Assembly: GCA_034433295.1 (NCBI GenBank)
Contig: DAOUAS010000019.1
Span: forward strand, 3,713 to 67,712
Source of the DNA: Anaerolineales bacterium
GTDB lineage: Bacteria > Chloroflexota > Anaerolineae > Anaerolineales > Villigracilaceae
Reading direction: 5' to 3'
Length of the DNA stretch: 64,000 nt
Position 1 is the first letter of the stretch. Each line of letters opens with the position of its first letter. A program made the translations under genes and the position numbers. Below, piece by piece: positions 8,381 through 42,953 of the stretch. The notes beneath the pieces were generated by a model, which did no database searches, was not told the origin of the DNA, and saw only the letters and a program-made list of their open reading frames with translations.

Positions 8381-8402
8381 GGGTTGATTATACGTTAATT
8401 CA

Positions 8403-9539: not shown

Positions 9540-9595
9540 TCCTTCGACTACGCTCAGGACGAACCTTCATCCTTCCTCTTTCATCCTTCGTCCTT
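9540..9595. repeat. 24-bp dispersed repeat copy 2 plus ttcatcc-type low-complexity tail, directly upstream of the TIR gene
   Basis: tccttcgactacgctcaggacgaa followed by ccttcatccttcctctttcatccttcgtcctt. Anchored by codons of track ORF 9524. Confidence 0.8.
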
Positions 9596-10153
9596 ATGTC
9601 ACGACCTCTCCGCGTTTTCCTTTGCCATTCCTCCAAAGACAAAGCCGCCGTGCGCGAGTTGTATCAAAAATTGCGCGCCGAGGAATGGATTGACCCTTGG
9701 CTCGATGAAGAGAAGTCATTGCCAGAGCAGGATTGGCGCGAGGAAATCGAAAAAGCCGTTGAAATTGCGGATGTGGTGATTGTCCTCTTATCGAAACAAT
9801 CCGTCTCACAGGAGGGATTTGTCCAGCGCGAATTGAAACTTGCGCTGGATGTCGCAAACGAAAAACCAGAAATCACGATTTTTATCATCCCTCTGCGTTT
9901 GGACGATTGCCCCGCCCCCCGCCGCTTGCATGGTTGGCATTATGTGGACTATTTCCCTGAAAACCGAAAGCCTTGGGTCATAGAGCGCTTGATTGCCAGC
10001 TTGAAAGTGTGGGCTGAGACGCTTGGCATAACGACTGATACAAAGCAAGAACCAAAAAAGGCAGCGTCCGCCTCTACACAGGAAAAGAAAGCGCCCGAAG
10101 TCAAAGTTGCTCCGAGAAAGCCTTTTACTAGCTTACTTTTGCAAGAGGTCTAA
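9596..10153 (+). CDS. stand-alone TIR-domain protein
   Basis: RVFLCHSSKDKAAVRELYQKL...ADVVIVLLSKQSVSQEGFVQRELKLAL matches the TIR_2-type pattern, including the conserved Glu. ATG 9596 chosen because the upstream extension is repeat-encoded. Confidence 0.8.
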   Translation: MSRPLRVFLCHSSKDKAAVRELYQKLRAEEWIDPWLDEEKSLPEQDWREEIEKAVEIADVVIVLLSKQSVSQEGFVQRELKLALDVANEKPEITIFIIPLRLDDCPAPRRLHGWHYVDYFPENRKPWVIERLIASLKVWAETLGITTDTKQEPKKAASASTQEKKAPEVKVAPRKPFTSLLLQEV

Positions 10154-10243
10154 TGGACGCCTGTCACCGACCAAAGTTGCCCAAAGGGGAATGGCGTGAA
10201 GGTTGTATAATACGTCCGCCAAATTCAAATCATTGGAGTCGCT

Positions 10244-24623: not shown

Positions 24624-24626
24624 TTT

Positions 24627-26198: not shown

Positions 26199-26200
26199 CA

Positions 26201-26935
26201 ATGAAGTCCAATATTTTGGTCGTTGACGATGAGCCTGTTGCGCGCCAGTCTCTGACGGATATTCTCAAATTGGAAGGATACAACGTTTCATCCGCTCCCA
26301 ACGGGCAGGCCGCTGTCGAATATGTCCGCACGCATCCCATTGATTTGATGATCGTGGATCTGCGAATGCCCGGCATGGACGGCCTTGAAGTGGTGCAGGT
26401 GGTCAATCAGGTTTCGCCTGAAACCGAGGTGATCTTGCTCACGGCTTTCGGTTCCACCGAAACGGCAATCCAAGCCTTGCGTTTGCGAATTCATGATTAC
26501 CTGTTGAAACCCGCCTCGCCTGCCCAAGTTTTGGCAAGTGTCAAGAAGGGACTGGCGCGTCATGAAGCCCGGTCTCGCGCGGGCAGCGCCGCCCTCAGCA
26601 CCGACGTGGATGAAACCGTGGAGGTCTTTTCACTCAAGGATGGGACAACGGTTGACCTTTCCCGCCGCCAGATCAAACACAAGAGCAAGGTGGAACATCT
26701 GACACCCGCCGAAGGCAGATTATTGCGAATTCTGATCGAGAATGAAGGCAAGGTGTTTTCACACCGTGAACTGGTTCTGCTGGTTCAAGGGTACGATACT
26801 TCGCAGCGTGAGGCGCCGGAAATTTTGCGTCCTCTGGTCAGCCGGTTGCGTCACAAACTGGATCAGTTCCCGTCCTTGTCGGAGCGGGTGGTTAGTGTGC
26901 GGGGCACGGGATATTTATACGAGGGGAATAAGTGA
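26201..26935 (+). CDS. OmpR-family response regulator (REC + winged helix)
   Basis: MKSNILVVDDEP...LMIVDLRMPGMDG...YLLKP, then LTPAEGRLLRILIENEGKVFSHRELV...VRGTGY. SD ggagg lies upstream. Confidence 0.88.
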   Translation: MKSNILVVDDEPVARQSLTDILKLEGYNVSSAPNGQAAVEYVRTHPIDLMIVDLRMPGMDGLEVVQVVNQVSPETEVILLTAFGSTETAIQALRLRIHDYLLKPASPAQVLASVKKGLARHEARSRAGSAALSTDVDETVEVFSLKDGTTVDLSRRQIKHKSKVEHLTPAEGRLLRILIENEGKVFSHRELVLLVQGYDTSQREAPEILRPLVSRLRHKLDQFPSLSERVVSVRGTGYLYEGNK

Positions 26936-27968: not shown

Positions 27969-29624
27969 TTATTTTATTAATGCTTTTACTTCTTCCAGGA
28001 ATTCATCGTTGAGAAAATCACCCTTTTGCATCAGGGATTGAATCTGACCGCTCAGCCTGTTCTTTTCATCGGGCGTCAGTTCCTTGGCGGTTGCAACGAT
28101 TACAGGAATGGTGGCTGTCTCCTGCTTTGCGCGCAGGGCTTCAATCACCCCAAAACCATCCAGCTCGGGCATCATCAAATCCAGCACGACAAGGTCCGGT
28201 AATTCGCGCTGGATTAGATCGAGACCTTCGCGTCCGTTGGTGGCCTCCAAAATGGTGAAACTTCCCTGCGATTGCAAAATGCGGCGAATCAAGCGGCGGG
28301 CCTCTGCGGTATCCTCCACGATAGCGATCTTGGGGAAACGTTCCGGCGCGACCTGGCTCAGGGCCGAGAGCAGGCCTTCCTGCGGGGTTTGTTCGCTGGT
28401 CATCAATTTAACGTCGCGCGACCAGTTGTCACCAAGAACGCCAGCCTCCGCTGGCATGGTGTGACCCGTGCAATTCACCACCACAGTGTCACTGGGCTTG
28501 ATGATGCCGGCGCGAATCAGCTTGAAGAGCCCGGCAAAGGCCACGGCTGCGGCAGGTTCGGCGGAAATTCCCTCCATTTTTGCCAGAACGTGCATGGCGC
28601 GGAAGGCATCCTCGTCACTCACACTCTCGAAAGCGCCATTGGTGCTATTCACATAATCGCGTAAAAATTGGTAGGAACGGCCGGGGTCGCCGGTGGCAAG
28701 CGTTTCGATGCGGGTTTTGGGCGAGGTGACGGTCTCCGCCTTTTCCAATCCCTTCTTCCAACTGGTCACCATGGGGGCGCAGCCTTCCGCCTGGATGGGG
28801 GCGAACGCGGGAATGTTTTCGATCCAACCCATGCTTTTCATTTCGCGGAAACCCTTGTAAATGCCGATGGGTCCCATGCCGCCGCTGATGGCCTGCACGT
28901 ACCAGTCGGGTGTGATCCAGGGATAACCTGTGTTTTCTGTATCCTGGATGGCGGTCAGTTGTTCGGCAATTTCGAATGCAATGGTCTTCATCGCTTCGAT
29001 GGAGGTAATGGTGCGCGCCCCCATATCCTGATACAAATGGCGTTGTTGCGCGAACTCGGCCGCAACCTGTTTGCATTGATCGTAGGAACCTGTGATTTTG
29101 ATGACCTGGCTTCCATACAGCGCGATTTCGCGCATTTTCATGGCAGGCACTAGGCTGGTGACGAAGGCCCATAGTTTCATCCCCGCGCGGGATGCGTAGG
29201 CCGAATAGGAAATTGCAACGTTGCCAGTGGAAGCTGCCACCATCTCGGTGATGCCAGCCTCCTTCAGCGCGGCAATTGTCACCGCCGCCTGCCTGTCCTT
29301 GAATGAGGATGTCGGACCCTGACGCTCATCCTTGATGTAAATATTGGGACAGCCCAGCATCATGCCCAGATTTACTGCGCGGATGAGCGGAGTTCCGCCT
29401 TCGCCGAGCGACAGGCTTATGTTTGGATTGCGGACGGGCAACAATTCACGATAGCGCCAGAGATCGAAGGGGCGTGAAGCCAGTTTGGGAAGCAGGGTCT
29501 TTCCGATGATTTCATAATCGTATTCCGCTTCACGCCACTGACTGTTGCACTTGGGGCATGTGGTTGAAGTTGGGTAGTATGGCGCCAGATGCCCGCAATC
29601 GACGCACTTGATGAGAAAGGACAC
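27969..29624 (-). CDS. threonine-synthase-like PLP enzyme fused to a C-terminal receiver (REC) domain
   Basis: N-terminal Zn-ribbon (CVDCG...CPKC), PLP-lysine motif SSFKDRQAAV and a fold-type-II body. The last 125 aa or so are KIAIVEDTAEARRLI...LVVLDLMMPELDG...IPVIVATAK...MQKG, i.e. REC. Confidence 0.85.
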   Translation of the reverse strand: MSFLIKCVDCGHLAPYYPTSTTCPKCNSQWREAEYDYEIIGKTLLPKLASRPFDLWRYRELLPVRNPNISLSLGEGGTPLIRAVNLGMMLGCPNIYIKDERQGPTSSFKDRQAAVTIAALKEAGITEMVAASTGNVAISYSAYASRAGMKLWAFVTSLVPAMKMREIALYGSQVIKITGSYDQCKQVAAEFAQQRHLYQDMGARTITSIEAMKTIAFEIAEQLTAIQDTENTGYPWITPDWYVQAISGGMGPIGIYKGFREMKSMGWIENIPAFAPIQAEGCAPMVTSWKKGLEKAETVTSPKTRIETLATGDPGRSYQFLRDYVNSTNGAFESVSDEDAFRAMHVLAKMEGISAEPAAAVAFAGLFKLIRAGIIKPSDTVVVNCTGHTMPAEAGVLGDNWSRDVKLMTSEQTPQEGLLSALSQVAPERFPKIAIVEDTAEARRLIRRILQSQGSFTILEATNGREGLDLIQRELPDLVVLDLMMPELDGFGVIEALRAKQETATIPVIVATAKELTPDEKNRLSGQIQSLMQKGDFLNDEFLEEVKALIK

Positions 29625-29659: not shown

Positions 29660-32600
29660 TTATGTGCGAACTCGTTCGAGCGACCGCTGAATGGATGTAA
29701 GCAGTTCTTTTTCGTTGAAGGAGCCCTTCGACAATAGTCGTTGACCGAATTCGTTTAACTGCTGTTTTTGTTCGTTTGTAAGTTCCATGCCGCTAATGAC
29801 GATCACCGGAATGTCGCGCAGTTTTTCGGATGCTTGCATGTTTTCCAATATCTTGAAGCCGTCCATTTCGGGCATGAACAGATCCAGGATCACGGCATGG
29901 GGAGGTTTGCCCGACGAGATGATATCCCAACCCACGCGTCCGCCTTCCGCGAGTATGGGCTTGTATCTTCCGTCGTCGATCAGCATTTTGCCGAGCAGCC
30001 GCAGGTCATCGGGGTTATCGTCGATCACCAACACATCGCGGATCGAGCCGTCGGTGTTCAGGCGATCCAGGGCATTGACGAGGTCTTCCTCCAAAATGGG
30101 TTTGACCAGATAATCTGTCGCCCCAAGGTTGAATCCCTTTTCGAGTTCTTCGACGATACTGCAGATAATGACGGGAATGTTGCGCGTGTCGGGGTCGCCT
30201 TTCAGGTTGTCCAAAACCTGCCAGCCATCGATGTTTGGCATCATAATGTCCAACGTTACCGCAAAAGGTCTGAGTTCCTTGACGCGTTCCACCGCTTTTG
30301 AAGGATCGGTCAATGGGACCACCTGATACCCCTGCGGGTGTAAATAGCGTTCGTATAGTCCAATAACCTGCATATCATCATCGATTGCCAGCACCACTTT
30401 ATTGCTGCCATCGGTGATGCTTTCGTGTTCCTTGTGGAAAAGGGGCAGGGTAAAGTGGAACGTGCTTCCCCTTCCAATTTCGCTTTCGACCCATATCTTG
30501 CCACCATGCATGTTGACAATGTGCTGGCAGATCGACAATCCGAGGCCGGTGCCGCCGGTTTTGCGGGTGGGGGAATCGTCCACCTGTGAGAAGGGTTGGA
30601 AGAGCTTTGCCTGATCCGGCTCGGCAATACCCGGACCTGTATCGGTGACGCTCACGCGAACTTCGTTGTGTCCGCTGGTTCCAGGCTTCAGCCCAACTTC
30701 CACGCTGATGATGCCTTCATCGGTGAATTTGGCCGCGTTCGAAAGCAGGTTGATCATCACCTGGCGGATGCGAATGGCGTCGGCCCGCACTGTTGGCAGG
30801 TTGGGCTGAATCGTGCGCTGCAATTGAATGGGCTTGTCCTTGATGAGCCCGGTCATGGTGGAAAGGACGCTGTTGGTGATATCGGAGATGTTCACTTCGT
30901 CGAAAGCCAGTTCCATCTTGCCGGCTTCGATCTTGGAAAGGTCCAGCACATCGTTGATCAGACCAAGCAGGTGTTGTCCCGAATTGTAGATGGCTGTCAG
31001 GTCCTGTTGTTGTAATTCGGTGACGGGACCGTCGATGCCCTTGATGATTACGCGCGAGAAACCGATGATCGAGTTGAGGGGTGTGCGCAATTCGTGGCTC
31101 ATATTGGCCAGGAACTGGCTCTTCATGCGGTCGATTTCGCGCATTTCCATAACAGCCTGCTGTGACAGTTCGAAGGAGCGCGCATTGTCGATGGCCACCG
31201 CCACCTGGTCTGAAAGTGTTTGAAGCACGGCTATGTCGTCTTCGGTTAGTGCGCCGGCAGACTTGGATTGAATGTCGATTACCCCGATGATGCGGCTTCC
31301 GATCCGCAGGGGGAGCGCGGCTTCCGCCCGCGTTTCAGGCAGCAGGGGGTTGAATTTGTGCGTTGGGCTTGCCGTGACGTCGTTGACCACGACAGCCTGT
31401 CCATCCATGGCCACTTTGCCGACGATGGATTTGTCGTTGATCTGTAGCGTATGCTTCCTTTCCTTCATTTCCTTTCCGGCTTCGCCGGTCGCTTCGCGCA
31501 GGACGGCATTGAAGCCGGTTTCCTCGACGATGAAAATGCCCGCATGGTAGAAGCGGAAACGTTCATTGATCAGGTTTACGGTTCGGGCGAAGATCGTGTT
31601 CAAGTCCAGCGTGGATGTGACCAGCCTGCTGATTTCCGCGGACGCCGCAAGGTACTCATTGCGGCGTCTGATTGCCTCTTCGGACTTTTTACGCTCTGTA
31701 ATGTCACGCGCCACCCAGAAGACATTGTTGTCATCGAGTTTGGTGAGCTTTGCCAGAAACCAGAAGACCTCGTTTCCCACTTGCATGTCATACTCGATCT
31801 GGGTGGGCTCGTCGTTTTCCAATGTCCGTCTGATTGCTTCTAGAAATTTATCGGCTGTTTCCCCGGGAAGCACATCGTGGACCAATTTGCCCAGCAACTC
31901 TTCCGGAGGCTTGATTAAACGCGACGGGTTTGTGGGCGCAATGCGCACATACCGGCCATCGCGGTCATAGACCAATACGATGTCTTCCATTGCCGAGAAT
32001 AAGGCGCGCAGGTCCGCTTCGGATTTGGCAAGGGACTCCTCCGATTTCTTGCGCTCTGTAATATCCTGATGCACGGAAAGGAAACCAAGAACTTTTCCGT
32101 TCTCATCGAGGATTGGACTGTTCGTTCCTGCGATGAAGACAAGGCGACCGTCCTTTGCCTTGTTGACGATTTCACCTGTGACGGTTCCTCCGCTCAAAAG
32201 CCTGTCCCAGAAGTGTTTGTATTGCACCTCTGTGATAAGCCCGGATTTCAGGATGCGCGGAGTCTTCCCCAGCGCTTCTTCACTGGTGAAACCGTATATT
32301 TTCTCGAATCCCGGGTTGATATATTGGATGGCGCCGTTGGGGTCGGTGATGAATACTGCATTGTCGGTCCTGTCGATCCCAAGTTTGAATTTTTGAGCTT
32401 CCTGGAACAGGCGCGCGTTTTCCAGCGCCAGCGATAACTGGTCTGTGACCTGTTTTATAAGCAGTTCGTCTTCCGGAGTCCACTGTCGCTGTTCTTCGGT
32501 CAGGATGCGCAGCGTAGCCCAGTCCTGGTAGCCGCTCTGGATATTGACGGAAAAAGTGGTTGTGGCGCTGTCCTCGTTGCGCACAGGCAGGGATTCGGCA

Positions 32601-32827
32601 AAAACCATTGTGGCAATATCGCGTCCGGTTGTTTGCGGACTTGGCGCCACTTCGGGTTTTGCCGGAGCGGGAGCCGGCGGCTGATGGGGTGGGATACCCG
32701 CAGATTCGATGGACGATAGAACCTTCCTCTCCTTTTTGGAAGGTTCCGGTTTTGCCGCGCTCTCTTCAGGAGTAAGCCCTTTGAATAAATTGTCAATTCG
32801 CTTGTTTATTTTCGGTTTCTTTGACAT
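29660..32827 (-). CDS. hybrid sensor histidine kinase (half-GAF module - PAS - PAS - GAF - HisKA - HATPase_c - REC - REC)
   Basis: H-box MSHELRTPLNSIIG, G boxes DTGPGI and GTGLGLS, and two receivers (VLAIDDD...VTLDIMMPNIDG; VLVIDDN...VILDLFMPEMDG). The GAF has the cluster signature FRFYHAGIFIVEE...TRAEAALPL...IGVIDIQS. The N-terminal QWTPEDELLIKQVTDQLSLALENARLFQE matches the sensors' second module. Confidence 0.9.
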   Translation of the reverse strand: MSKKPKINKRIDNLFKGLTPEESAAKPEPSKKERKVLSSIESAGIPPHQPPAPAPAKPEVAPSPQTTGRDIATMVFAESLPVRNEDSATTTFSVNIQSGYQDWATLRILTEEQRQWTPEDELLIKQVTDQLSLALENARLFQEAQKFKLGIDRTDNAVFITDPNGAIQYINPGFEKIYGFTSEEALGKTPRILKSGLITEVQYKHFWDRLLSGGTVTGEIVNKAKDGRLVFIAGTNSPILDENGKVLGFLSVHQDITERKKSEESLAKSEADLRALFSAMEDIVLVYDRDGRYVRIAPTNPSRLIKPPEELLGKLVHDVLPGETADKFLEAIRRTLENDEPTQIEYDMQVGNEVFWFLAKLTKLDDNNVFWVARDITERKKSEEAIRRRNEYLAASAEISRLVTSTLDLNTIFARTVNLINERFRFYHAGIFIVEETGFNAVLREATGEAGKEMKERKHTLQINDKSIVGKVAMDGQAVVVNDVTASPTHKFNPLLPETRAEAALPLRIGSRIIGVIDIQSKSAGALTEDDIAVLQTLSDQVAVAIDNARSFELSQQAVMEMREIDRMKSQFLANMSHELRTPLNSIIGFSRVIIKGIDGPVTELQQQDLTAIYNSGQHLLGLINDVLDLSKIEAGKMELAFDEVNISDITNSVLSTMTGLIKDKPIQLQRTIQPNLPTVRADAIRIRQVMINLLSNAAKFTDEGIISVEVGLKPGTSGHNEVRVSVTDTGPGIAEPDQAKLFQPFSQVDDSPTRKTGGTGLGLSICQHIVNMHGGKIWVESEIGRGSTFHFTLPLFHKEHESITDGSNKVVLAIDDDMQVIGLYERYLHPQGYQVVPLTDPSKAVERVKELRPFAVTLDIMMPNIDGWQVLDNLKGDPDTRNIPVIICSIVEELEKGFNLGATDYLVKPILEEDLVNALDRLNTDGSIRDVLVIDDNPDDLRLLGKMLIDDGRYKPILAEGGRVGWDIISSGKPPHAVILDLFMPEMDGFKILENMQASEKLRDIPVIVISGMELTNEQKQQLNEFGQRLLSKGSFNEKELLTSIQRSLERVRT

Positions 32828-33581
32828 ATTCCATTAACTCCTGGGCGAGCACGTGATATTGCGTTGTGCCTCGCGCGGCGGGTTTGTAGCGGGAGATCGG
32901 CAATCCTGCAATCGAACTTTCGCGCAGTTTTGTGTCCATTTCGATCACCGTGCTGAATACGCCTTCGCCAAATGTCGAACGAAGCTGCTCATGGATGTTG
33001 CGGTGCGTGCGGTTCCTGTTATCGAGCATTGTAACGAGAATGCGATATGCAAGGTTGGGATTGTCGTCTTCGCGAATGCGGCGTACGAGATTCATCATGT
33101 TGCGAAGAGCGTAGGCGGAGAAATACTCGGCCTGCGTGGGGATGAGCAGAAGGTCTGCCGACGCAAGGGCGTTTTGTGTAATTGCGCCAAGGGAGGGGGG
33201 GCAATCGAGCAAAACATAGTCGTACGGCAGGTTGGGCGTTCCGGCGATGGCTCGCTTGAGGATGGTGGTGTAATTTGTTCGCACGGGCAGGAATTGCTCG
33301 CATGTTTCGATCCGCAGGCTGGACGAAATCAGGTCCAGGTTTTCGACTTCCGTCCTTCGGCGCACATTCAGCAGCGGGACGTTGTCAAGAAGTATGTTGC
33401 TGGATGTGCTTTCGGACTCTCCCGGCTCGAACCCGAGAGCCAGCGTCAGGTTGGCTTGCGCATCCAGGTCGATAAGGAGGACACGACAGCCCAGTTCGCC
33501 AAGCGCGGCTCCCAGTGAGATGGTGGTTGTGGTCTTTGCAACGCCGCCTTTTTCATTGGATACTGCAATTGTTTTGGTCAT
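32793..33581 (-). CDS. ParA/MinD-family ATPase (orphan; no ParB nearby)
   Basis: Deviant Walker A KTIAVSNEKGGVAKTT and Walker B YVLLDCPP. Overlaps the kinase start by 35 nt. Confidence 0.88.
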   Translation of the reverse strand: MTKTIAVSNEKGGVAKTTTTISLGAALGELGCRVLLIDLDAQANLTLALGFEPGESESTSSNILLDNVPLLNVRRRTEVENLDLISSSLRIETCEQFLPVRTNYTTILKRAIAGTPNLPYDYVLLDCPPSLGAITQNALASADLLLIPTQAEYFSAYALRNMMNLVRRIREDDNPNLAYRILVTMLDNRNRTHRNIHEQLRSTFGEGVFSTVIEMDTKLRESSIAGLPISRYKPAARGTTQYHVLAQELMEYVKETENKQAN

Positions 33582-33598: not shown

Positions 33599-35845
33599 TT
33601 AATCGTCTTCCGATGGTGATACGCCTTTTTGCGGGATGATTTCAACGCGCGTGACGCCCAAAGCGCGCTTTAGTTCCTCAACCGCCGTCCTCACCATTTC
33701 CTGCGGGTCATTGGTACTGCGGATCTTGGTGGTGATGTCTGTTACGAGACGTTCACGCGAGGCGCGCGCGGATGTTTCCTCGAAAAGCCGGGCGTTATCC
33801 AACGCAAGACCGAGGCGTTCTGCGACCGCCCGCACGATATTGACTTCATCGGTTCTCCAATGCCTGCCCCCGGTGATGGGACGGATATCGAGGGTTCCGA
33901 TTGTCTGATTGCGCAATTTGATCGGGACAGTCAATGCGCCGTTTTCATTTGCATCCGGAAGTTCGTCCCTGGCTTTGTTTGCGGTGATGACCTGTCCGCC
34001 GGTCAGGGTTTGATGATAGCCAACAATGCCGGAGGCAGACTTCTTTTGCCACGAATCGGCAAGATATTCCCGGAAGATGGATTGCGATTCTGCGAGAGCC
34101 TCCTGAGCCTCCTGCAATAGGCGGACATTGTCAATGGAGATGGCGATTTGGTCTGCCAGCAGACTGAGGGTGGAGATATCCGTGTCGGTGAAGGCGTTTG
34201 GAACAGTGCTTTGCACGTCCAATGCGCCGATGATCTTGCCGCGCGCGGTGAGCGGCAGGGCCATTTCAGCGTGTGTGTCGGGCAGATCGGGGTTGTTGAA
34301 AAACACAGCATCTGAACCGGTATCCAGCGCAATGCGGGGGACACCGGTTGCAGTCACCATGCCTACGATGCCGACCTGTCCGACTTCGAGTTTGTGTTGT
34401 CTGTCCAGCATCTTTTGTCCGCCGGGACTGTTCGCCGCGCGCAGGATAGCATAGTTACCACTTTCGTTGAGAAGGAAGATGCCAACGTGATAGAACCCGA
34501 AACGTTCGCTCACAGCTCGTGTAACAAGAGGAAGGAGGAGTTCCAAGTCCTTTTCTGTCGAAAGGTATTGACCGATTTCTGCAATTGTCCGCAGGTCTCT
34601 GGCGCGTTTTTCGCTTTCCTTCGAAGTCTGTTCGAGTTCGGCGCTGCGATGTTCCAATTCCAAAGTGCGCTGTGCCACCCGGTCTTCCAACTCCGTCACC
34701 AGGTTTTGCAGTTGCCCAGCCATGCTGTTGAACGAATTGGTGAGCAGACCCACCTCATCCTTGGATGGGTTGGACACGCGCTGAGAGTAATCTCCGCTTG
34801 CCATTTTGTCGGCTGCTTCCTGGAGCCTGTGGATGGGCCTGGAAATTTGGTAAGTGGCGAACAAGGCCAATATGACATTGCCGATTATTGCGAAGAAGGC
34901 AAATACGCCGCGTTGATCGGAGATGAGTTGATCCTTTACCACTAACAGATCGCCCAGGTTAACAGCGATGCCGACCACGGCCCGGGTATCTGCGCCGATG
35001 GTAACTGGAGTCAAACCCAGGGCGTGGGGGGCGCCTCCCGGCGTCGTGAACAATTCCCCGGCAACGACCACTTGCCCATTCAAAGCCTGTTCGATGGATT
35101 TTGGCTCCAGCATGTAGGAGGAAAAATACGTCAATCCCGTGGCATCCTCGAAATCGGTGGCAACGATCTCCCCATCGATAATCAACGCCAGGTCGAGGCT
35201 GTGACCGGAAATGACGTTGATCTTCGAAAGCATCTTGTCATCCATCAGGCGGCTGCCGATGACCGCGCCGATCACCTTGCCGGAATTATCATGGACCGGG
35301 GTGGCGACCGAAATGTAGATTTGTTGTGGTTCGTCTCCCATGACAATGCCGCTGGCATTGAAACCCAGCAACGCCAGTTCGAGCAGACGATCTTCTCCGG
35401 CGGAGTTTTCTTCGGATACATCGAACAGCCGCCTGCCCTGGGCGTTTACTGTGTCTACGTCGTCGAAGTCGAGACGGGCGGCTGCAATCAACAGATCGGA
35501 TTGAACGGGCTTGATGTTCCCCCTTGTCAGCGCGTCCAACAACCCCGGAGTGTTGGAGAGCGCCACAGCATTATTGAGCATTTCCCGTTCGATTTCTTCG
35601 AAGCGGATCCGAATGATCTGCGCTTCCTGTTCGACATTTCGACGCCCGGCTTGGATCATGAAGCTATTCATGCCGATATTGGTTGCCAGAACCATTCCAA
35701 GCAACAGGAAACTGAATATCACGAAGACCAGAATGTTCAGCCTCGCGCCCAGTGTTGTTTTCTTGATGAGTTCCAAAAGCCGCATCAGTCTCTGCTCCTT
35801 TGCAGTCATCCAGACTTCGTCAGGACGGCTGCAAAATACGATCAA
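33599..35845 (-). CDS. membrane sensor paralog 1 (TM - extracytoplasmic domain - TM - HAMP - S-helix - GAF - half-GAF - tail), no output domain
   Basis: HAMP SRPIHRLQEAADKMASGDY...DEVGLLTNSFNSMAGQL, S-helix LEDRVAQRTLELE, GAF FGFYHVGIFLLNE...THAEMALPL...IGALDVQS. The start may instead be an internal Met. Confidence 0.85.
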   Translation of the reverse strand: MIVFCSRPDEVWMTAKEQRLMRLLELIKKTTLGARLNILVFVIFSFLLLGMVLATNIGMNSFMIQAGRRNVEQEAQIIRIRFEEIEREMLNNAVALSNTPGLLDALTRGNIKPVQSDLLIAAARLDFDDVDTVNAQGRRLFDVSEENSAGEDRLLELALLGFNASGIVMGDEPQQIYISVATPVHDNSGKVIGAVIGSRLMDDKMLSKINVISGHSLDLALIIDGEIVATDFEDATGLTYFSSYMLEPKSIEQALNGQVVVAGELFTTPGGAPHALGLTPVTIGADTRAVVGIAVNLGDLLVVKDQLISDQRGVFAFFAIIGNVILALFATYQISRPIHRLQEAADKMASGDYSQRVSNPSKDEVGLLTNSFNSMAGQLQNLVTELEDRVAQRTLELEHRSAELEQTSKESEKRARDLRTIAEIGQYLSTEKDLELLLPLVTRAVSERFGFYHVGIFLLNESGNYAILRAANSPGGQKMLDRQHKLEVGQVGIVGMVTATGVPRIALDTGSDAVFFNNPDLPDTHAEMALPLTARGKIIGALDVQSTVPNAFTDTDISTLSLLADQIAISIDNVRLLQEAQEALAESQSIFREYLADSWQKKSASGIVGYHQTLTGGQVITANKARDELPDANENGALTVPIKLRNQTIGTLDIRPITGGRHWRTDEVNIVRAVAERLGLALDNARLFEETSARASRERLVTDITTKIRSTNDPQEMVRTAVEELKRALGVTRVEIIPQKGVSPSEDD

Positions 35846-35846
35846 T

Positions 35847-36683
35847 TTACGGGGTTGGGATGAACCCGAGCGCCTTTAATTCAGCCTGTCCTTCATCGGA
35901 GGACAACCAGTCGATCAGCGGTTTGATTTCGCTTTCATGTTCCGCCAGATAGCCGATGCCGGCCGAGCCGAGGATGGGGTAGGATGCATTATTTGGCAGA
36001 ATGCCGTTGATGGCAATCGTTTCCACTTCCGCATTTTCGGCCAGCACAGGCGGCAGGGCGGCAATCCCAACCGCTCCCCTTGTGCCTTCCACTGAGAAGA
36101 TCATATCCGACTGGCTGAAGAGAGTTTTGGCTGTTTCAGAAAGGGCTGTTTCGCCTATCATGGCTTTTCGCAATCCCTTTGTGCTTGAGTCGTCCTCATC
36201 GCGCACATACAGGACAAGATCAAGGTTTGCCCCCCCTACCTGGGACCAGTTTGTGACCTTACCCGAAAAGATTTCAGTGATCTGACGTTTGTTCAGACTT
36301 GAAACGCCGGTTACAGAGGGATGAACGATAATCGATTGCCCAATCAGACCCATTTCGTAGTATTTGATGTTTTTGGCGATTTCTTCATCCTTGGGTGGGC
36401 GCGCCATTGCCGCCGCATCCAGCAAACCTTCGAGGATGCCGGTAACGCCGCTGCCGGTGCTGTTGCCGGACATGACTTCGAGTTTATAGCCGGGGGTTGC
36501 CCGTTCAAATGCGGGCGTCAGAACTTCGAGTACGCTTGTAATCGTTCCCGAGCCCGATATCTTCAATACCACCAGCCGGGAGGGCGTTGGGGTTGGCGGT
36601 TGCGAAGAGAAGCCCGCGCACGAGGTTGAGAATAGCGCGCCGGTCAATATCAGAAAAATAAAACGTATATAACGGTTTTTCAT
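35847..36683 (-). CDS. PstS-like (PBP_like_2) periplasmic substrate-binding lipoprotein, orphan
   Basis: Lipobox LFSTSC plus LKISGSGTI and NSTGSGVTG motifs of the phosphate-binding-protein fold. No ABC permease or ATPase anywhere in the window. Confidence 0.75.
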   Translation of the reverse strand: MKNRYIRFIFLILTGALFSTSCAGFSSQPPTPTPSRLVVLKISGSGTITSVLEVLTPAFERATPGYKLEVMSGNSTGSGVTGILEGLLDAAAMARPPKDEEIAKNIKYYEMGLIGQSIIVHPSVTGVSSLNKRQITEIFSGKVTNWSQVGGANLDLVLYVRDEDDSSTKGLRKAMIGETALSETAKTLFSQSDMIFSVEGTRGAVGIAALPPVLAENAEVETIAINGILPNNASYPILGSAGIGYLAEHESEIKPLIDWLSSDEGQAELKALGFIPTP

Positions 36684-39148
36684 TCCAAATCCTTCACGTT
36701 CGTTGCTTGCAGGTTGATGTAAATATCCGCATCATGTAGCAGGTGGCTTAATTCGTTTGCAGTGGTCCGGAGAATGTTTTCGGTGCGGAAAGAAGCGGAA
36801 ATTTTCGAAGCAATATCTGAAATGGCGCGTTCCATTTCGGCGCGCCGGGATGTTTCATCGAAGAGGCGGGCGTTTTCAGCGGCAAGCGCCACCCGCTCCG
36901 CAACGATCTTGATCAAATCGACCCGGTCCTGGCTGACAGGTTCATCCTTTGGAAGTTGAACGGATAGCGAGCCTATTGTCTCTCCTCGCACGATAATGGG
37001 GATGTTGATATCCGAGGCTGTGCCAGTATTCCCCACATCCTCATTTGCCTGCAGGGGAACGGCGCCGGAGACGGAATATCGATACCCGCCAAGTTGTTCC
37101 TCCCTTGTCAACCGTCCCCAGGTTTCACGAACATATTGACGTTGAATGACCTCGAACTCCAGGATCGCCTTTTGCGCCTGGTCGAAGAGACGCGCGTTTT
37201 GAATGGCAAGGCTTACCTGGTCTGCCAGCGCTGATAGGGTTTTGAAGTCTTCGTCGGTGAACGCGCCGACCTCGGTGCTTTGAATATCAAGGGCGCCGAC
37301 AACCTGGTTGCCGGCTTTGAGCGGCAGCGCCATTTCGGAGTGGGTGAAGGGAAGTTCAGGGTTGGTGAAATAGATCGCGTCCTCGCCGACATCGAGCGCA
37401 ATGCGCGGTTTGCCGGTTTGCGTCACATATCCGACGATGCCTTGCTCCCCGATTTTCAACTGGTGTCCGCGGGCGAGCATTTTCATGCCACCTTCGCTGT
37501 TGGCCGCACTAAGGACGGCGTACAGGTCGTTCTTGTCGTTCAGGAAAATTCCCACATGATAAAAACCGAAGTTTTCGCTGATTGTCCTCGAGATTTGAGG
37601 CAGGAGAACCTCGAGGTTGTGGGTGGCGTTGATAACGCGGGCTACGTTGGTGATGGCTTCGAATTGTTTTCCTCTGCGGACACCTTTTTCAAGCGCGTCC
37701 TGCAGTTCTGATGTGCGCTCGGACACCCTTTGTTCAAGCGTGTTGACCGAGCCTTTGATGGCGTCGGTCATTATGTTCAGTGTTTCTGCCAGGATTCCGA
37801 TTTCATCCCGGTTTTTGATCTCCGCTTTTGCGTTGTAATTTCCTCTGCCGATTTCGCCGGCAATGCCTGTCAGGGATTTCAGCGGGGCGGTCAATCGGTT
37901 TCCAATGACAAGCGTCGAAACGGATGCCATGGACAGGATCAACGCCACGAGCAAAACGCTGGTGGTGATGATATTTCTTGTTTCCTGAAGAATCTGGGCT
38001 TTGACTGTGGTTGATTCGAGCAGCAACTCTTCGGACGGCACTGTGATGATCAGGCTGTATCCAAGCGTCGGAATTTGCTGATACGCCACGAATCTCTCGA
38101 CCCCGTTTACATTCACCGGGATCACAATATCGCTGCCGAGGGAGCGTTGTTCCAGTACCTGCCGAAAATCCCCGGAAACTTTTTCCAATTTTGTTTGGTC
38201 TAATATTTCTCCCAGAGACGCCGTTTCTGGCGTGAAGCCAAAATCGCCGTAACCGGCTTCGGGCAGGGCGATCAAGCGGTTCTCGCTGTCGATCAGGAAG
38301 GCGTATCCTGTTTCTCCAATCTTGATCTCGGAAACCAGGCTTGTGATTCTCTCCAGTTGAATATCCATGGCCGAAACGCCCTGAAATTTTCCGCCGCCGT
38401 CGAAGACCGGTACGCTGGCTGTTATCACCAGCCCGTTCAGCGCCGCATCCTGATAGGGCGCGGACCATACCACACTTTGATCGGGGTTTTGCCCCGGCGA
38501 TGCCGCAACATACCAGGGGCGTCCGGTTACATCGAAGTCTGCCGGCACGATATTTGCTAGGTCGATGTTGGGGAAGTAGATGGTTTCCTTGAACGTCCCC
38601 CCGAAATAGACAGCGATGATGTCGGGGTTGTCCTTGAGAATGGAAGGCACGATCAACTCGGTTTGCTTTATCACATTTAGTCTAGAGGTAAATTCATCCG
38701 TAAGTTCGGCGCCGGCGGGTATGAAAACCGAGGCGGTCTCCGAATTCGGATTATCCCATGCCCCGGCGGGTGTTTGGACAAGGGCTTCCTTTGCATTCCA
38801 ATAGATTCCGCTATTCAACCTGGATTCCCCGGCGAACATTTGTTTTTCCGTTTTGCCCAACATGGAAATGTAATCCCTCATCGACTCGAAAAAGACATTA
38901 AGGATTGCGGCCTGTTCCCGGCTGGTGGTCTGGAGTTTCTCCTCTGCCTTGTTGCGAACGCTCGATTCGAGCTGGGCGGTCAGGACTGCGTTTGATTCCT
39001 GCGTGCGAAAATAAACGTAATAACCCATGCCCACAATGGACGCAAAGGTGATCAGTAGGTTGCCCAGGATCAGTTTGGCGCGCAAGTTCATGCGGCTGAA
39101 GGGCATTTTTCGGGTGTTTCCAGGTTTAGACGAACGAAGCATGCTCAT
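36680..39148 (-). CDS. membrane sensor paralog 2 (TM - dCache - TM - HAMP - S-helix - GAF - half-GAF - tail)
   Basis: dCache_1-like GRPWYVAA...LVITASVPVFD..GKFQGVSAMDI...GETGYAFLIDSENRLIA, HAMP RDEIGILAETLNIMTDAI, S-helix LEQRVSERTSELQ, GAF FGFYHVGIFLNDK. Confidence 0.88.
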   Translation of the reverse strand: MSMLRSSKPGNTRKMPFSRMNLRAKLILGNLLITFASIVGMGYYVYFRTQESNAVLTAQLESSVRNKAEEKLQTTSREQAAILNVFFESMRDYISMLGKTEKQMFAGESRLNSGIYWNAKEALVQTPAGAWDNPNSETASVFIPAGAELTDEFTSRLNVIKQTELIVPSILKDNPDIIAVYFGGTFKETIYFPNIDLANIVPADFDVTGRPWYVAASPGQNPDQSVVWSAPYQDAALNGLVITASVPVFDGGGKFQGVSAMDIQLERITSLVSEIKIGETGYAFLIDSENRLIALPEAGYGDFGFTPETASLGEILDQTKLEKVSGDFRQVLEQRSLGSDIVIPVNVNGVERFVAYQQIPTLGYSLIITVPSEELLLESTTVKAQILQETRNIITTSVLLVALILSMASVSTLVIGNRLTAPLKSLTGIAGEIGRGNYNAKAEIKNRDEIGILAETLNIMTDAIKGSVNTLEQRVSERTSELQDALEKGVRRGKQFEAITNVARVINATHNLEVLLPQISRTISENFGFYHVGIFLNDKNDLYAVLSAANSEGGMKMLARGHQLKIGEQGIVGYVTQTGKPRIALDVGEDAIYFTNPELPFTHSEMALPLKAGNQVVGALDIQSTEVGAFTDEDFKTLSALADQVSLAIQNARLFDQAQKAILEFEVIQRQYVRETWGRLTREEQLGGYRYSVSGAVPLQANEDVGNTGTASDINIPIIVRGETIGSLSVQLPKDEPVSQDRVDLIKIVAERVALAAENARLFDETSRRAEMERAISDIASKISASFRTENILRTTANELSHLLHDADIYINLQATNVKDLE

Positions 39149-41982
39149 CCCTGCGATTCCTTACTTTCATTGCTGTTCTTTAGTTGAAGGACAACATTCG
39201 ACCCGGGCATAATGCGTCCCAACTCCTCCACCGCTGTTCGCAATACATTTTTGAGATTGGCGGCTTCGCTGATCTTGCCTGTAATATCGCCGAGGGTTTG
39301 TTCCCTGGCGGCTTGACGCTGGGCCTCTTCGATCAGGCGGGCGTTATCCAGGGCAATTGAAAGGCGCTCACATACTGTTTCAGCGAGATTGATTTCGTCG
39401 GCGGACCATTCGCGATTTTTAATCGGCGCCTTGATATTAATGCTTCCGATAACCTGCCCACGGAGTTTAATGGGCAGGACAATGGAGGCTTCCTGGGTGA
39501 TGCCGTCTGCGTGGAAAATCAAGACTTCACCGCGTTTCATGGTCTGTTCAATTTCATCTGATTTAACCGCCCTGGTTATTTTTTGTCCGCTGGTTATATT
39601 TTGACGGTAGCCGACAAAACCCTTTTGTCGGCTGAATACCTTCCAGCCCTCCTGGATGTTTTGGCGGTAAAGCGCCTGTGCTTCATTCAAAGCCTGCTGT
39701 GTCTGAGCAAAGAGCCGGGCATTTTCCAGCGCAATTGCGATCTGGTCTGCAAGAATACCGAGAGTGCTGGCGTCGTTTTCGGTGAACGCTCCCGCCCTTT
39801 TACTTTGCACGTCAAGCACGCCCACCAGACTATCCCTTACTTTAAGCGGCAGGGCTATTTCCGAGCGTGTTTCTGGCAGGTCGGGATTGTTAAAGTAAAC
39901 TGCATCCTGTCCAACATCGAGCGAAATGCGTGGGTAACCGGATCGGGCAACGTATCCGACGATGCTGTTTTCGCCAAGTTCGAGTTTGTGTCCGCGCTTC
40001 AGCATGTTTTGTCCGCCCGCGCTATTTGAGGCTTGCAGTACTGCATATTGATTCGAATTGTCGACCAGGAAGATGCCGACATGGTAGAAATCAAATCGTT
40101 CGCTCACCAGGCGGGTAATCAGCGGCAACAGGTTCTCGAGTTTTTGTTCGCTGGTGATGATCTTTGAAATCTCGCCAATGGATTGGAGTTCGTTTGCCCT
40201 CCTGATGCTTTGCTGGCGCGAGAGTTCCAGGTCGGCTGTGCGCTCCGCCACGCGTTGTTCCAGCCCGGTTAGTGTCTGGCTCAATTGGCGGGTCATGCGA
40301 TTGAATGTGTCGGCCAAAATGCCGATTTCATCTTTGGTGTTTACTTCGGCTTGCGCATTTAAATCTCCCGAAGTAATTTTTTCAGCGACTTTGGTAAGAA
40401 TACCAAGCGGGGATGTCAGGATTTGCGAAGCCACAAACCCGGCAAGAATGCCGAAGACGACCAGCAGCATCGAAGTGAGCGTATTGGTTTTGTTCTGCTC
40501 CCTGATCGAGGCAAGGTAAGTTTCGGTGGGCTGTTGAACCAGGACAGCCCATGGAAGGTTTTTTAGGAAAACGCCGGCATTGATGGCTTCGGACTGGTGT
40601 AATTCCGAGTAGCTGTAAAAGAATGGCTCCTGTGCAAGATTGTCCATTCCGGCAACAATTGCATCATCTGTTGCCATGATCGCATTTGCCGGAAGCCGCC
40701 CATCTGATTGCAGAGCCACAAATTCTACTTCGCTGAAATCCCTGTATGTTTTGAAGAGGTTATCGCGCTCGCCTGTGTAACCGGTCCGCAGATAGGTGTT
40801 TACGTCGACAACCGATATGATTGTGTCATTTCCGCCCGTATCCAGCGAACGGACAATGGATTGGATGATGGTCCCATAATACTCGATTCTCAACACACCG
40901 ATGGTCTCCCCGTCGAGATTTTTGATTGGCGCGCTAAAGTATATGCTTGGCTTTTTCCCGCGAAATGTGATGTTGGACACATAAGGCAGACCGCTCTTCA
41001 TCGGCCGGGTGAAGTGGGTGAACATGGATTCATCCCTGCCCGTGTAGTCTTCGAAGGTGTCCAGGACATCCATCCCGTTTGAATCCAGGACGGCGATCGA
41101 GCGAATGAAGACCGGGTTCTTGCGCGACAGGAACAGCAAGGCCTGGCTTGCGTTTTTTTCCTCGCCGGGCTGGGACGGAGGCTCAAGATATTCGATCAGC
41201 GAAATTTGCTTTGCGTCTGCGTGTATGGCATCCGTTTGGGCGTTGATGAAATCATCGAGCGTGTCCGCCGCAATGTTTGCGAGTGCGGATAATTGTGCTT
41301 CGCTTTGCCTTTGCAGCGCCGCCGTCGAATACCGGCTGTTAATGACGCTCAGCGCGATGAGCGGAACGATTGTGATGAGAATGAAGGCGATGACAATCTT
41401 GGTCTGGAGGGTGTATGACCTGAAGTTCCTTAGGATAAAGAAGGCATACACAACGGATATTGCCCCGGCTAGGATATTTGTGTAAGTGGGGTCGTTGGGC
41501 AGGCTGGCGCGGGGTAGATATAGGTCGACCAAAATGACAAGGACAGTAATGATGAATGCGCTGACGATTGCGCGCCTTGCCAGCATAGGAGGAAGTGCAA
41601 TGGAGGAAATGCCGGATACAAGGACGAGGATGATAATGGCAAGCCCAAGCCCCTGTCCATAGGCAAGGAAAGGCAGCATACAGGATAAAATCAAAAGTGC
41701 CGCAATTAATATGCCGATGCCCTGTGTGGCGCGCCCGCGTGAAACTTGCAGGGCGCTTGTGAATGCCGCCGCAGATGCAATTCCTGTTATTAGAATTCCC
41801 CACAAGCCGGCCAGCCCATTTTCATAATAGGCAACCGGGGTCAGGATCACGGTGATCACCAGGAATAAAACGCCGGTGATCAGGCTGATCACTAATGCGT
41901 TTTTCCTGCGGGCTTCCTCTTCTGATGATGCGGGCGGGCGATTGGCTGGGTAATCCATATAGGTTCTCGTCTTGTTTGGCAA
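39145..41982 (-). CDS. membrane sensor paralog 3 (about 6 TM - extracytoplasmic domain - TM - HAMP - S-helix - GAF - half-GAF - tail)
   Basis: Long polytopic N-terminus, HAMP SPLGILTKVAEKITSGDLN...KDEIGILADTFNRMTRQL, S-helix LEQRVAERTADLE, GAF FDFYHVGIFLVDN. Confidence 0.88.
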   Translation of the reverse strand: MPNKTRTYMDYPANRPPASSEEEARRKNALVISLITGVLFLVITVILTPVAYYENGLAGLWGILITGIASAAAFTSALQVSRGRATQGIGILIAALLILSCMLPFLAYGQGLGLAIIILVLVSGISSIALPPMLARRAIVSAFIITVLVILVDLYLPRASLPNDPTYTNILAGAISVVYAFFILRNFRSYTLQTKIVIAFILITIVPLIALSVINSRYSTAALQRQSEAQLSALANIAADTLDDFINAQTDAIHADAKQISLIEYLEPPSQPGEEKNASQALLFLSRKNPVFIRSIAVLDSNGMDVLDTFEDYTGRDESMFTHFTRPMKSGLPYVSNITFRGKKPSIYFSAPIKNLDGETIGVLRIEYYGTIIQSIVRSLDTGGNDTIISVVDVNTYLRTGYTGERDNLFKTYRDFSEVEFVALQSDGRLPANAIMATDDAIVAGMDNLAQEPFFYSYSELHQSEAINAGVFLKNLPWAVLVQQPTETYLASIREQNKTNTLTSMLLVVFGILAGFVASQILTSPLGILTKVAEKITSGDLNAQAEVNTKDEIGILADTFNRMTRQLSQTLTGLEQRVAERTADLELSRQQSIRRANELQSIGEISKIITSEQKLENLLPLITRLVSERFDFYHVGIFLVDNSNQYAVLQASNSAGGQNMLKRGHKLELGENSIVGYVARSGYPRISLDVGQDAVYFNNPDLPETRSEIALPLKVRDSLVGVLDVQSKRAGAFTENDASTLGILADQIAIALENARLFAQTQQALNEAQALYRQNIQEGWKVFSRQKGFVGYRQNITSGQKITRAVKSDEIEQTMKRGEVLIFHADGITQEASIVLPIKLRGQVIGSINIKAPIKNREWSADEINLAETVCERLSIALDNARLIEEAQRQAAREQTLGDITGKISEAANLKNVLRTAVEELGRIMPGSNVVLQLKNSNESKESQG

Positions 41983-41984
41983 GT

Positions 41985-42953
41985 TTAGGGCAGATAGGAT
42001 GGGTTGAGCAGTTCGAGCGGGTCGATCAATTGGGTGGTCGTGCCGATCGAAATAAGATAGTCGGATGTCATCTGCGTAACCGAGTAAATGGAATTTGTCC
42101 CTTCGATATCGAATAATTCCCTGTTTTCCTCTGCAGTGTAAAGCCTCTGATTATCATCGGGTTGTATTTCATCGGCGCTTACCCCAAGATATTTGGCGGC
42201 AATTTCGCGGGTTTCTCCCTGGTGTTGCATTCGGTACTCCACGGCTTGAAACCATGCTTTGAGGAAGGCGCGGATGTCCTCCGGCCTTTCATCCACAACC
42301 GCCTTGCTGAAAACGATCGTATCCGGAAAGAGGCGCATTTTTTGATTTGGGTAGATGATCCTGTTCCCATCTGCAATTGCCTTGGATAGGTGCGGCTCCC
42401 ATGTGTATACCGCCTGTACGCGTCCGCTCTTCAGCGCCTCCGAAGCGTCTTCCGGGTTGACGTTTACGATGGTTACATCGCTGACGCTCATTAAACCGCT
42501 CTTCAACATTTGAGACACCATTAGTTCGTATTGTGTTCCAAGGAGGACGCCGATAACCTTCCCATTTAAATCCTGGATCGAAGCAATCTCCGGGCTTGCG
42601 ACGATCGAGTCCGCGCCCCCATCGTCATTAAGCCCGACAACTTTCATCGGATAGGTATGGTGAATATTGATAACATCACCAACTGCAATCAACGCCCCGT
42701 CAATTTGCCCTGAGGCAAGGTCAGGGTAGATCTCTGGATAGACATCGTAATATACCGGTTCGACTTCGACCCCATACTTCTCGAAAAAACCTTTCTCCTT
42801 GGCTACCAGGAGCGTGTAATCGCCCCACCACTGCGTATATTCCACCCGGAGCGGTGGATTTGCGCGTTCTTCAGCCTGAAGCGGCGCGCATGAAGTGGGA
42901 ATGGTTGTCATTAAAACTGTAAGTAGGACGGTGTTAAAAAATTTTTTTTTCAT
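41985..42953 (-). CDS. NMT1/SsuA-like periplasmic substrate-binding lipoprotein, orphan
   Basis: Signal peptide with Cys (TIPTSCAP) and an overall pattern like nitrate/sulfonate/bicarbonate-type binding proteins (WWGDYTLLVAKEKGFFEKYGVEVE...). No transporter partner genes. Confidence 0.7.
   Translation of the reverse strand: MKKKFFNTVLLTVLMTTIPTSCAPLQAEERANPPLRVEYTQWWGDYTLLVAKEKGFFEKYGVEVEPVYYDVYPEIYPDLASGQIDGALIAVGDVINIHHTYPMKVVGLNDDGGADSIVASPEIASIQDLNGKVIGVLLGTQYELMVSQMLKSGLMSVSDVTIVNVNPEDASEALKSGRVQAVYTWEPHLSKAIADGNRIIYPNQKMRLFPDTIVFSKAVVDERPEDIRAFLKAWFQAVEYRMQHQGETREIAAKYLGVSADEIQPDDNQRLYTAEENRELFDIEGTNSIYSVTQMTSDYLISIGTTTQLIDPLELLNPSYLP

Follow-up and report, generated by a model that had tools for sequence, protein, structure and literature searches.

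Eleven membrane sensors ending in a GAF start and a kinase beginning with a GAF end: a possible split GAF domain in Anaerolineales

Genome annotations commonly include sensors that combine HAMP and GAF domains without any output domain, and these are usually left as 'GAF domain-containing protein'. A complete GAF domain (Pfam PF01590, PF13185 or PF13492) comprises about 130-150 residues and has a sheet of five to six strands together with a ligand pocket (b2-b4, a2-a4). In the tandem GAF or GAF-PHY arrays of cyanobacterial phytochrome- and cyanobacteriochrome-type kinases (8w26, 6oap, 2lb5, 6bhn), the order b5-b6-a5, long connecting helix, a1, b1 forms the junction of consecutive GAF-like domains. 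Completion of a fold in trans is known from chaperone-usher pilus subunits, in which donor-strand complementation completes an Ig-like fold with a terminal segment of another protein. In chemoreceptor arrays, a single kinase serves many receptors. Such clusters have a ParA-like positioning ATPase, as mentioned for PpfA/TlpT (PMC7993993). Here we describe a stretch of 64,000 nucleotides from an Anaerolineales bacterium (contig DAOUAS010000019.1; hereafter the window), in which 11 tandem, head-to-tail paralogous membrane-sensor genes (33599-59850, minus strand) encode proteins that all end in the start of a GAF domain, and in which a histidine kinase gene, located two genes downstream of paralog 1 after a ParA-like gene, encodes a protein that begins with the end of one.

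The tails of the sensors share with the cyanobacterial arrays the start motif ERERL..I...IR.S.D...IL.TTV.E.R..L..DRV, and a profile built from the C-terminal modules of the sensors aligns with 8w26 over such a junction. Unlike these arrays, the sensors end after strand b1 of the downstream domain, contain no bilin-binding region and carry no kinase in the same chain. The arrangement proposed below would resemble chaperone-usher pili in that an incomplete fold is completed by the terminal segment of another protein, giving a specific non-covalent joint. It would differ from them in that the donor is a helix-helix-strand rather than a single strand, the fold a GAF rather than Ig-like, and the outcome signalling rather than fibre assembly. 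As in chemoreceptor arrays, many dCache/HAMP sensors without enzymatic output stand beside one kinase, a ParA-like ATPase and a presumed ParA partner with a basic peptide. By contrast with these arrays, the locus has no MCP signalling domain, CheW or CheA, its kinase is a HisKA-type hybrid kinase, and the coupling would rely on a split GAF. If the two pieces docked, the resulting order (sensor, HAMP, GAFs, PAS, GAF, HisKA, HATPase, REC) would be that of single-chain HAMP-GAF-PAS-HisKA kinases, except that the chain is broken inside a GAF and that each genome offers 11 alternative versions of the sensor side. No description of this sensor family or of a naturally split GAF was found in the searchable literature.

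A GAF start at the C-terminus of the sensors

All 11 paralogs carry a conserved, alignable C-terminal segment of about 41 amino acids with the order helix-helix-strand (linker helix aL, helix a1 and strand b1; Table 1), called here the tail, and just 5-28 variable residues separate the strand from the stop codon. Over the core, the alignment of the 11 tails is gap-free and has a mean column identity of 51%, compared to 54% for the full GAFs and 40% for the whole C-terminal region; A5 and E34 do not vary at all, and I18 and L35 hardly do. When a hidden Markov model (HMM) of the tail was run against all six-frame open reading frame (ORF) pieces of the window, exactly 11 strong matches were obtained, one per paralog C-terminus (65-79 bits, E 1e-19 to 1e-24), and the next best match, at 8.6 bits, fell in paralog 11, on the true N-terminus of its fourth GAF. 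No second match of the tail profile was found in the linker helix ahead of the reduced GAF that precedes most tails, and this helix is not detectable as a degenerate tail by that profile.

A sequence-only reading of the window had attributed a conserved tail to all 11 proteins, which the HMM search bears out, since it retrieved these 11 C-termini and nothing else strong. The interval given there for paralog 1, 33599-33760, does cover the stop codon and residues 696-748, the conserved core being narrower (nucleotides 33635-33757). Its consensus pattern needs small corrections: the first residue, R, is replaced in paralogs 2, 4, 5, 6 and 7 (by M, V, K or Q), and the lead-in NARLxE occurs with the variants ETATLLQS, ENSRLL, ESARLY and ANARLVEQ.

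The same reading held that the tail mirrors the opening of the full GAFs and stops after the first strand. Profile-profile comparison with hhalign agrees: the tails match the paralogs' full GAFs significantly at their N-termini (probability 72%, E 3.5e-5) and in register, tail columns 2-50 falling on GAF columns 12-60 without a gap. Used alone against the PDB, the tail profile matched 12 chains at E <= 0.01, most of them from cyanobacterial phytochrome or cyanobacteriochrome kinases; all 12 matches fall either on the opening ~55 residues of a GAF or on a junction of two GAFs, with 8w26 (1.2e-11) and 6oap (6.6e-11) at the top. Judged by this sequence similarity, the tail is a true homolog of the GAF opening (aL, a1, b1) that ends after the first strand. 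It is a GAF fragment and not a GAF domain, as two-thirds of the fold are absent from its 41 amino acids, and Pfam reported no GAF stretch over it. The cysteine of the bilin-binding pocket is likewise lacking, the relevant region being absent and the similarity confined to the first ~45 residues.

Upstream of the tail, the N-terminal periplasmic or membrane sensor domains of the paralogs vary (Cache-type, MASE11, or membrane segments without a Pfam match) and are followed by one full GAF each according to Pfam. HAMP domains scored above the Pfam cut-off in paralogs 1, 2, 3, 6 and 11 and just below it in paralog 8, and no HAMP match was obtained in paralogs 4, 5, 7, 9 and 10. C-terminal to the full GAF, what can be recognised in paralogs 1-10 is the final third of a GAF (b5-b6-a5) alone, with the pattern '...PIKLRGQ.IG......W..DE..........ENARL.E'; in paralog 6, for instance, Pfam GAF_3 is matched over positions 64-129, the C-terminal half of the domain only, ahead of the tail. 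This reduced GAF is the module that precedes the tail in paralogs 1-10, and paralog 11 is the sole case in the window in which a complete GAF does so. Paralog 11 is also the largest of the series (1284 amino acids, four Pfam-detectable GAFs), and a stretch of ~300 amino acids in it, about residues 560-900, has a partial GAF match only.

At E <= 0.01, Pfam found in the 11 sensors only Cache-type domains (dCache_1, CHASE4, MCP-like_PDC_1), MASE11, HAMP and GAF, in addition to two sub-threshold chance matches. No output domain (kinase, cyclase, MCP or DNA-binding) was found in any of the 11; HisKA/DHp and HATPase_c are absent from all the tail-bearing proteins at that threshold, and the MCP signalling domain (MCPsignal) has no match in any paralog. 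For paralogs 1 and 10, an NCBIfam scan turned up partial HAMP and GAF matches only, far under the cut-offs. By their domain content, the 11 sensors are neither histidine kinases nor MCPs, the defining domains being absent.

A protein-database profile search returned 299 relatives, and those carrying a source name are all labelled Anaerolineales or Chloroflexi; in 120/120 of the relatives listed, the tail lies 1-34 residues from the protein end. A scan of species-representative genomes yielded 493 relatives, and 80 loci from it were examined together with 80 metagenome loci. The genome loci are nearly all from Anaerolineales or Chloroflexota metagenome-assembled genomes, with up to 8 tail-bearing genes within about 20 kb. 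Over these about 160 related loci, 606 of 610 tails end at most 40 residues from the stop codon. The information content of the tail is 2.64 bits per column in aL, 2.46 in a1 and 2.21 in b1; among the upstream parts, b5-b6-a5 reach 2.5-2.75 bits, and the linker helix and strands that precede b5-b6-a5 reach 1.88 and 1.43, respectively. Two paralog-2-like sensors (L071 10508-12724 and L058 10471-12732) contain an extra complete GAF, placed after the reduced GAF and ahead of the tail, so that the number of GAF units ahead of the tail varies while the tail is kept. Because 606 of the 610 tails are terminal, the tail is maintained by selection and is not decaying. The view that this truncated domain is not a product of decay, already put forward from the sequence, is thus upheld by the terminal position and by a conservation (2.2-2.6 bits per column) above that of the preceding linker and strands. 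A pseudogene or frameshift origin is ruled out by the same cut point and stop in the 11 paralogs and in about 600 homologs.

The kinase N-terminus and natural fusion proteins

The N-terminus of the kinase consists, in order, of a basic peptide, ~70 Pro/Ala/Lys-rich residues and the segment 'TTFSVNIQSGYQDWATLRILTEEQRQWTPEDELLIKQVTDQLSLALENARLFQEAQ' (residues 90-145), whose helix a5 leads straight into the first PAS domain. This segment, called here the orphan GAF end, matched the reduced GAF of the sensors with a probability of 98.5% and E 3e-15, the alignment being restricted to b5-b6-a5, and in the PDB it matched C-terminal GAF thirds only. Six PDB entries (8w26, 6oap, 6xhg, 6bhn, 8k9o and 7ckv) were matched by both the orphan GAF end and the tail. 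The two fragments are complementary, the tail corresponding to GAF residues ~1-55 and the kinase N-terminus to ~100-190; the middle (b2-b4) is missing from both. No tail-like segment was present in 50 kinase orthologs. A miscalled start of the kinase was ruled out: the frame is already closed 2 codons ahead of the ATG, leaving no space for an overlooked upstream exon.

In the genome loci, GAF ends without a tail (n=92) are nearly all the N-terminus of this hybrid kinase. The gene order tail-bearing sensor, ParA-like gene, kinase with orphan GAF end was observed in 60/60 genome loci having both the ParA-like gene and the kinase; the ParA-like gene starts 0-20 nucleotides after the tail-bearing sensor gene and is overlapped by the kinase gene. 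The metagenome loci were gathered independently, by searching with the kinase N-terminus, and 63 of them were assessable: 62 have the ParA-like gene and an upstream tail-bearing sensor, and the remaining one has the sensor. Mean pairwise identity over 118 loci was 0.61 for the orphan GAF end versus 0.30 for the following 300 amino acids of the kinase and, in the adjacent sensor, 0.66 for the tail versus 0.50 for the preceding half-GAF. These results demonstrate the homology of both pieces to GAF ends, their terminal position, their conservation and their co-occurrence in gene order.

The basic peptide at the very start of the kinase is conserved in orthologs (among them L022 13766-14515, P0357 and P0457), with the consensus K..KR[IL]D.LFK...PE[ED], and is found on the kinase and not on the sensors. 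Basic N-terminal peptides are a hallmark of the partners that activate ParA/MinD ATPases (PMC7993993), and by this analogy the kinase is probably a cargo or an activator of the ParA-like ATPase that contacts it through the peptide.

The structure of an ordinary sensor C-terminus was predicted with AlphaFold2 for residues 745-945 of paralog 3, using a 131-sequence alignment (mean predicted local distance difference test, pLDDT, 81). Residues 1-150 of this construct form a GAF-like domain from the incoming helix, five strands and a5 (pLDDT 80-95), two upstream strands being used together with the incoming helix, and Foldseek matched the model to GAF domains only, with weak E-values of about 1e-3. 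Helix a5 continues unbroken into aL as one helix, a1 follows after a short turn, and b1 is unpaired and not formed as a strand, with pLDDT values of 45-75 over the tail. In this monomer model, the tail does not belong to an ordinary complete domain in cis and is not simply disordered either; it resembles a folded hairpin whose strand is left unsatisfied.

Seven natural fusion proteins or ORFs place a tail in front of a GAF end (P0121/L057, P0122, P0241, P0242, L044, L054 and L067, corresponding to four locus ORFs and four database proteins since P0121 is L057). Their layout is an internal tail, a linker of 17-45 amino acids, a bare b5-b6-a5 and a second, terminal tail. In one example, a paralog-3-like body is followed by a paralog-2-like b5-b6-a5 and a paralog-1-like tail. 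The fusions are real, maintained genes, because P0121 and P0122, which come from different assemblies, are conserved (89% identical overall and 97% in the appended unit). They probably arose by deletions joining neighbouring paralogs, and their conservation between assemblies implies that the sensor array is remodelled by recombination between repeats.

The AlphaFold2 model of the last 205 amino acids of P0121 has a mean pLDDT of 90.6 and a predicted template modelling score of 0.71. Strand b1 of the internal tail (E72-77, pLDDT ~92) is paired with the sole other strands, b5-b6 (E97-104 and E107-115), and the aL/a1 hairpin has a pLDDT of ~95; the terminal tail has confident helices and an unpaired strand. 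Foldseek aligned the model with whole GAFs end to end (5w10_B over 163 columns, 3jab_B over 156 and 4y2f over 141); 8w26 was matched with E 1.3e-6, and tandem GAFs were matched as well. A tail and a bare GAF end are thus predicted to complement each other within a single chain, building a reduced GAF in normal topological order, and in this model the GAF end of one paralog type accepts the tail of another type. Of the functional interaction suspected by the sequence-only reading, the part that takes shape here is the completion of a partial GAF within one chain, as judged from the pLDDT of ~92 and the whole-GAF Foldseek matches of the fusion model.

A split GAF and its alternatives

We tentatively propose, at somewhat less than an even chance, that the sensor tails are the donor half of a split GAF and plug into the orphan GAF end of the kinase, the only such end in the operon and a more specific partner than any singled out by the sequence-only reading; docking in trans, the identity of the kinase as partner and the transfer of a signal are what we infer beyond the data above. 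The aL/a1 hairpin would form alone, leaving strand b1 and one hydrophobic face unsatisfied, and a GAF end (b5-b6-a5) without its own start would complete both. Docking would rebuild a small GAF in which the entering helix is the signalling helix of the sensor and the leaving helix, a5, runs into the first PAS domain of the kinase, a helix-in, helix-out path that would be the same as inside single-chain kinases. Any of the 11 sensors could thereby be wired to one kinase as if they were a single polypeptide. Judging from their HAMP/GAF architecture, the sensors presumably form parallel dimers along a continuous helical spine, and the kinase, dimeric through DHp, would present two GAF ends on flexible linkers, so that docking would give two small GAFs. 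The 11 sensors, two of them paired with binding-protein genes, would share or compete for the one kinase.

Several points weigh against this proposal. The tails of different window paralogs are only 25-37% identical whereas orthologous tails are ~66% identical, which could point to paralog-specific partners. The fusion result may come partly from tethering and from the AlphaFold prior for GAF folds, and the internal tail is covered by just 4 sequences in the P0121 alignment. No unsplit sensor-kinase protein was found among the 610 tails; a search for one with kinase residues 60-300 was dominated by multi-PAS proteins, and the two matches checked were ordinary kinase orthologs. Mutual information between the tail and the kinase GAF end reaches z 5.8 over a locus-permutation null, but that between the tail and ParA reaches z 17, and because of this higher value the former is explained by shared ancestry. 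Finally, 11 sensors per one kinase raise a question of stoichiometry.

Slightly less likely again is the larger, previously undescribed arrangement in which a split GAF connects about a dozen interchangeable output-less sensors to one shared kinase, restoring an unbroken signalling-helix path over two polypeptides, and in which this kinase is positioned by a dedicated ParA-like ATPase via the basic peptide. If borne out, wiring through a split domain would constitute a new mechanism. The Anaerolineales sensor family would then gain a concrete output, one kinase integrating about 11 inputs, and natural fragment complementation would be found serving signalling. The two pieces (~41 and ~56 amino acids) would also make a compact orthogonal docking pair for synthetic receptor-kinase wiring. 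For annotation, a C-terminal GAF start and an N-terminal GAF end in one operon are to be read together.

Among the alternatives, the one that survives best, although we hold it to be unlikely, is that the tail acts homotypically: in a sensor homodimer, the two tails would pack as a four-helix cap with paired strands, or a tail would dock on a reduced GAF belonging to its partner chain or to a different sensor, thereby stabilising dimers or building higher-order sensor arrays, and the kinase would be contacted otherwise. HAMP-containing receptors are parallel dimers, from which two tails would emerge side by side, and the confidently predicted aL/a1 hairpin (pLDDT ~95) is in keeping with such packing, as is the greater likeness of orthologous tails (0.66) than of paralogous ones (25-37%), as if each tail matched its own protein. 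Direct coupling analysis (DCA; 715 sequences, effective number 378, zero-sum gauge, gaps excluded) gave mainly intra-tail couplings consistent with the aL/a1 hairpin (e.g. R127-L162) and a few between the tail and its own half-GAF (L111-V155, V89-I141), which would fit a homotypic contact. In the canonical GAFs of the paralogs, the top coupled pairs are the expected b1-b6 and a1-a5 contacts. The couplings between the tail and its own half-GAF do not follow these (Spearman 0.015; mean percentile 0.43 for the top 20 canonical pairs), in a test of low power whose positive controls were weak (0.06 and 0.10). A strand swap, an option raised by the sequence-only reading, accordingly finds no support within a sensor dimer, the strand being free in the monomer model and the couplings lying off the GAF contacts in this low-power test. 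Moreover, the reduced GAF appears already complete by the secondary-structure order of the model and its GAF-only Foldseek matches, and a homotypic role leaves the bare, highly conserved GAF end of the kinase unexplained.

It is improbable that the tail is a structural remnant of a truncated former GAF, in which the helical hairpin caps the signalling coiled coil, ending and stabilising it, and the strand has no partner. The relatives with an additional full GAF at this place indicate that domain gain or loss occurs at that end, and the helices (2.5-2.6 bits) are more conserved than the strand (2.2 bits). Against a remnant, the strand keeps an alternating hydrophobic pattern and, at 2.2 bits, exceeds the linker (1.9) and the upstream strands (1.4); the cut point is identical in 606/610 copies, and an exposed amphipathic strand without a partner is unlikely to persist in 11 paralogs and many genera.

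A different partner for the tail, such as the ParA-like ATPase or a receiver protein of the operon, with a role in localisation rather than signalling, is very unlikely. The ParA-like gene invariably adjoins the last tail-bearing sensor gene, and the tail/ParA mutual information given above would fit, though its simplest cause is shared ancestry. However, ParA/MinD partners use basic N-terminal peptides (PMC7993993), which the kinase has and the sensors have not, and neither ParA nor the receivers contain anything that would complement a GAF start. Equally improbable is intramolecular completion, in which the tail folds back on the preceding partial GAF to give a circularly permuted complete domain: the order 'GAF end then GAF start' is that produced by circular permutation through duplication and truncation, and Pfam sees just the C-terminal GAF half before the tail (e.g. 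in paralog 6), but the paralog 3 model builds its GAF-like domain without the tail strand, which is left unpaired, the tail of paralog 11, L071 and L058 follows a complete GAF with its own first strand, and the low-power DCA test gave no canonical tail-to-half-GAF contacts.

The operon and its neighbouring genes

Stop/start overlaps occur at 36680-36683, 39145-39148, 50797-50800, 54332-54348, 55996-55999 and 32793-32827, with gaps of a few bases elsewhere. Because such overlaps and gaps run along much of the stretch, 59860-27969 (minus strand), from the single-domain receiver gene to the PALP-receiver gene (Table 1), the organisation suggests one very long, translationally coupled operon.

Table 1. 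Positions of the tails, the kinase N-terminal elements, the fusion ORFs and the genes of the operon (window numbering; for fusion ORFs, numbering of the locus named)
Feature	Position	Strand	Residues	Remarks
Tail, paralog 1	33635-33757	-	697-737	RERLVTDITTKIRSTNDPQEMVRTAVEELKRALGVTRVEII; linker helix aL, helix a1, strand b1; 11 amino acids, then stop
Tail, paralog 2	36713-36835	-	772-812	
Tail, paralog 3	39184-39306	-	893-933	
Tail, paralog 4	43001-43123	-	596-636	
Tail, paralog 5	44960-45082	-	527-567	
Tail, paralog 6	46758-46880	-	729-769	
Tail, paralog 7	49124-49246	-	519-559	
Tail, paralog 8	50884-51006	-	546-586	
Tail, paralog 9	52744-52866	-	495-535	
Tail, paralog 10	54359-54481	-	507-547	
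Tail, paralog 11	56032-56154	-	1233-1273	After complete fourth GAF
Orphan GAF end b5-b6-a5 of kinase	32393-32560	-	90-145	No aL-a1-b1 before it; proposed acceptor ('socket')
Basic N-terminal peptide of kinase and start of Pro/Ala/Lys-rich linker	32738-32827	-	1-30	MSKKPKINKRIDNLFKGL...; conserved in orthologs
Fusion ORF, L057 (P0121)	8351-11068			
Fusion ORF, L044	3-2702			
Fusion ORF, L054	7865-11158			
Fusion ORF, L067	7898-10852			
Paralog 1 ORF	33599-35845	-		
Paralog 2 ORF	36680-39148	-		
Paralog 3 ORF	39145-41982	-		
Paralog 4 ORF	42968-44908	-		
Paralog 5 ORF	44942-46660	-		
Paralog 6 ORF	46719-49064	-		
Paralog 7 ORF	49070-50800	-		
Paralog 8 ORF	50797-52641	-		
Paralog 9 ORF	52678-54348	-		
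Paralog 10 ORF	54332-55999	-		
Paralog 11 ORF	55996-59850	-		
Single receiver gene	59860-60312			Operon start
ParA/MinD-like ATPase gene	32793-33581	-		Between last sensor and kinase; overlaps kinase start
Soluble hybrid histidine kinase gene	29660-32827	-		PAS, PAS, GAF, HisKA, HATPase, REC, REC
PALP enzyme and receiver fusion gene	27969-29624	-		After kinase
NMT1/OpuAC-like periplasmic solute-binding-protein gene	41985-42953	-		Directly upstream of paralog 3
PBP_like_2 periplasmic solute-binding-protein gene	35847-36683	-		Directly upstream of paralog 1; overlaps paralog 2 end

The two solute-binding-protein genes are separated from paralogs 1 and 3 by only 1-2 nucleotides, and their products are likely the ligand-delivery partners of these two sensors. 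Just past the operon, a second, divergent two-component set (22023-26935, plus strand) encodes an OmpR-type regulator and two histidine kinases, one GAF-GAF and one REC-GAF; neither a tail nor an orphan GAF end is present in any protein of this set. The PALP protein at the end of the operon is threonine-synthase-like, carries a Cys4 zinc-ribbon motif at its N-terminus and a receiver domain at its C-terminus, and is a possible metabolic output of the phosphorelay. In a related genome locus (L001 17479-19085), the kinase is likewise followed by a PALP and receiver pair.

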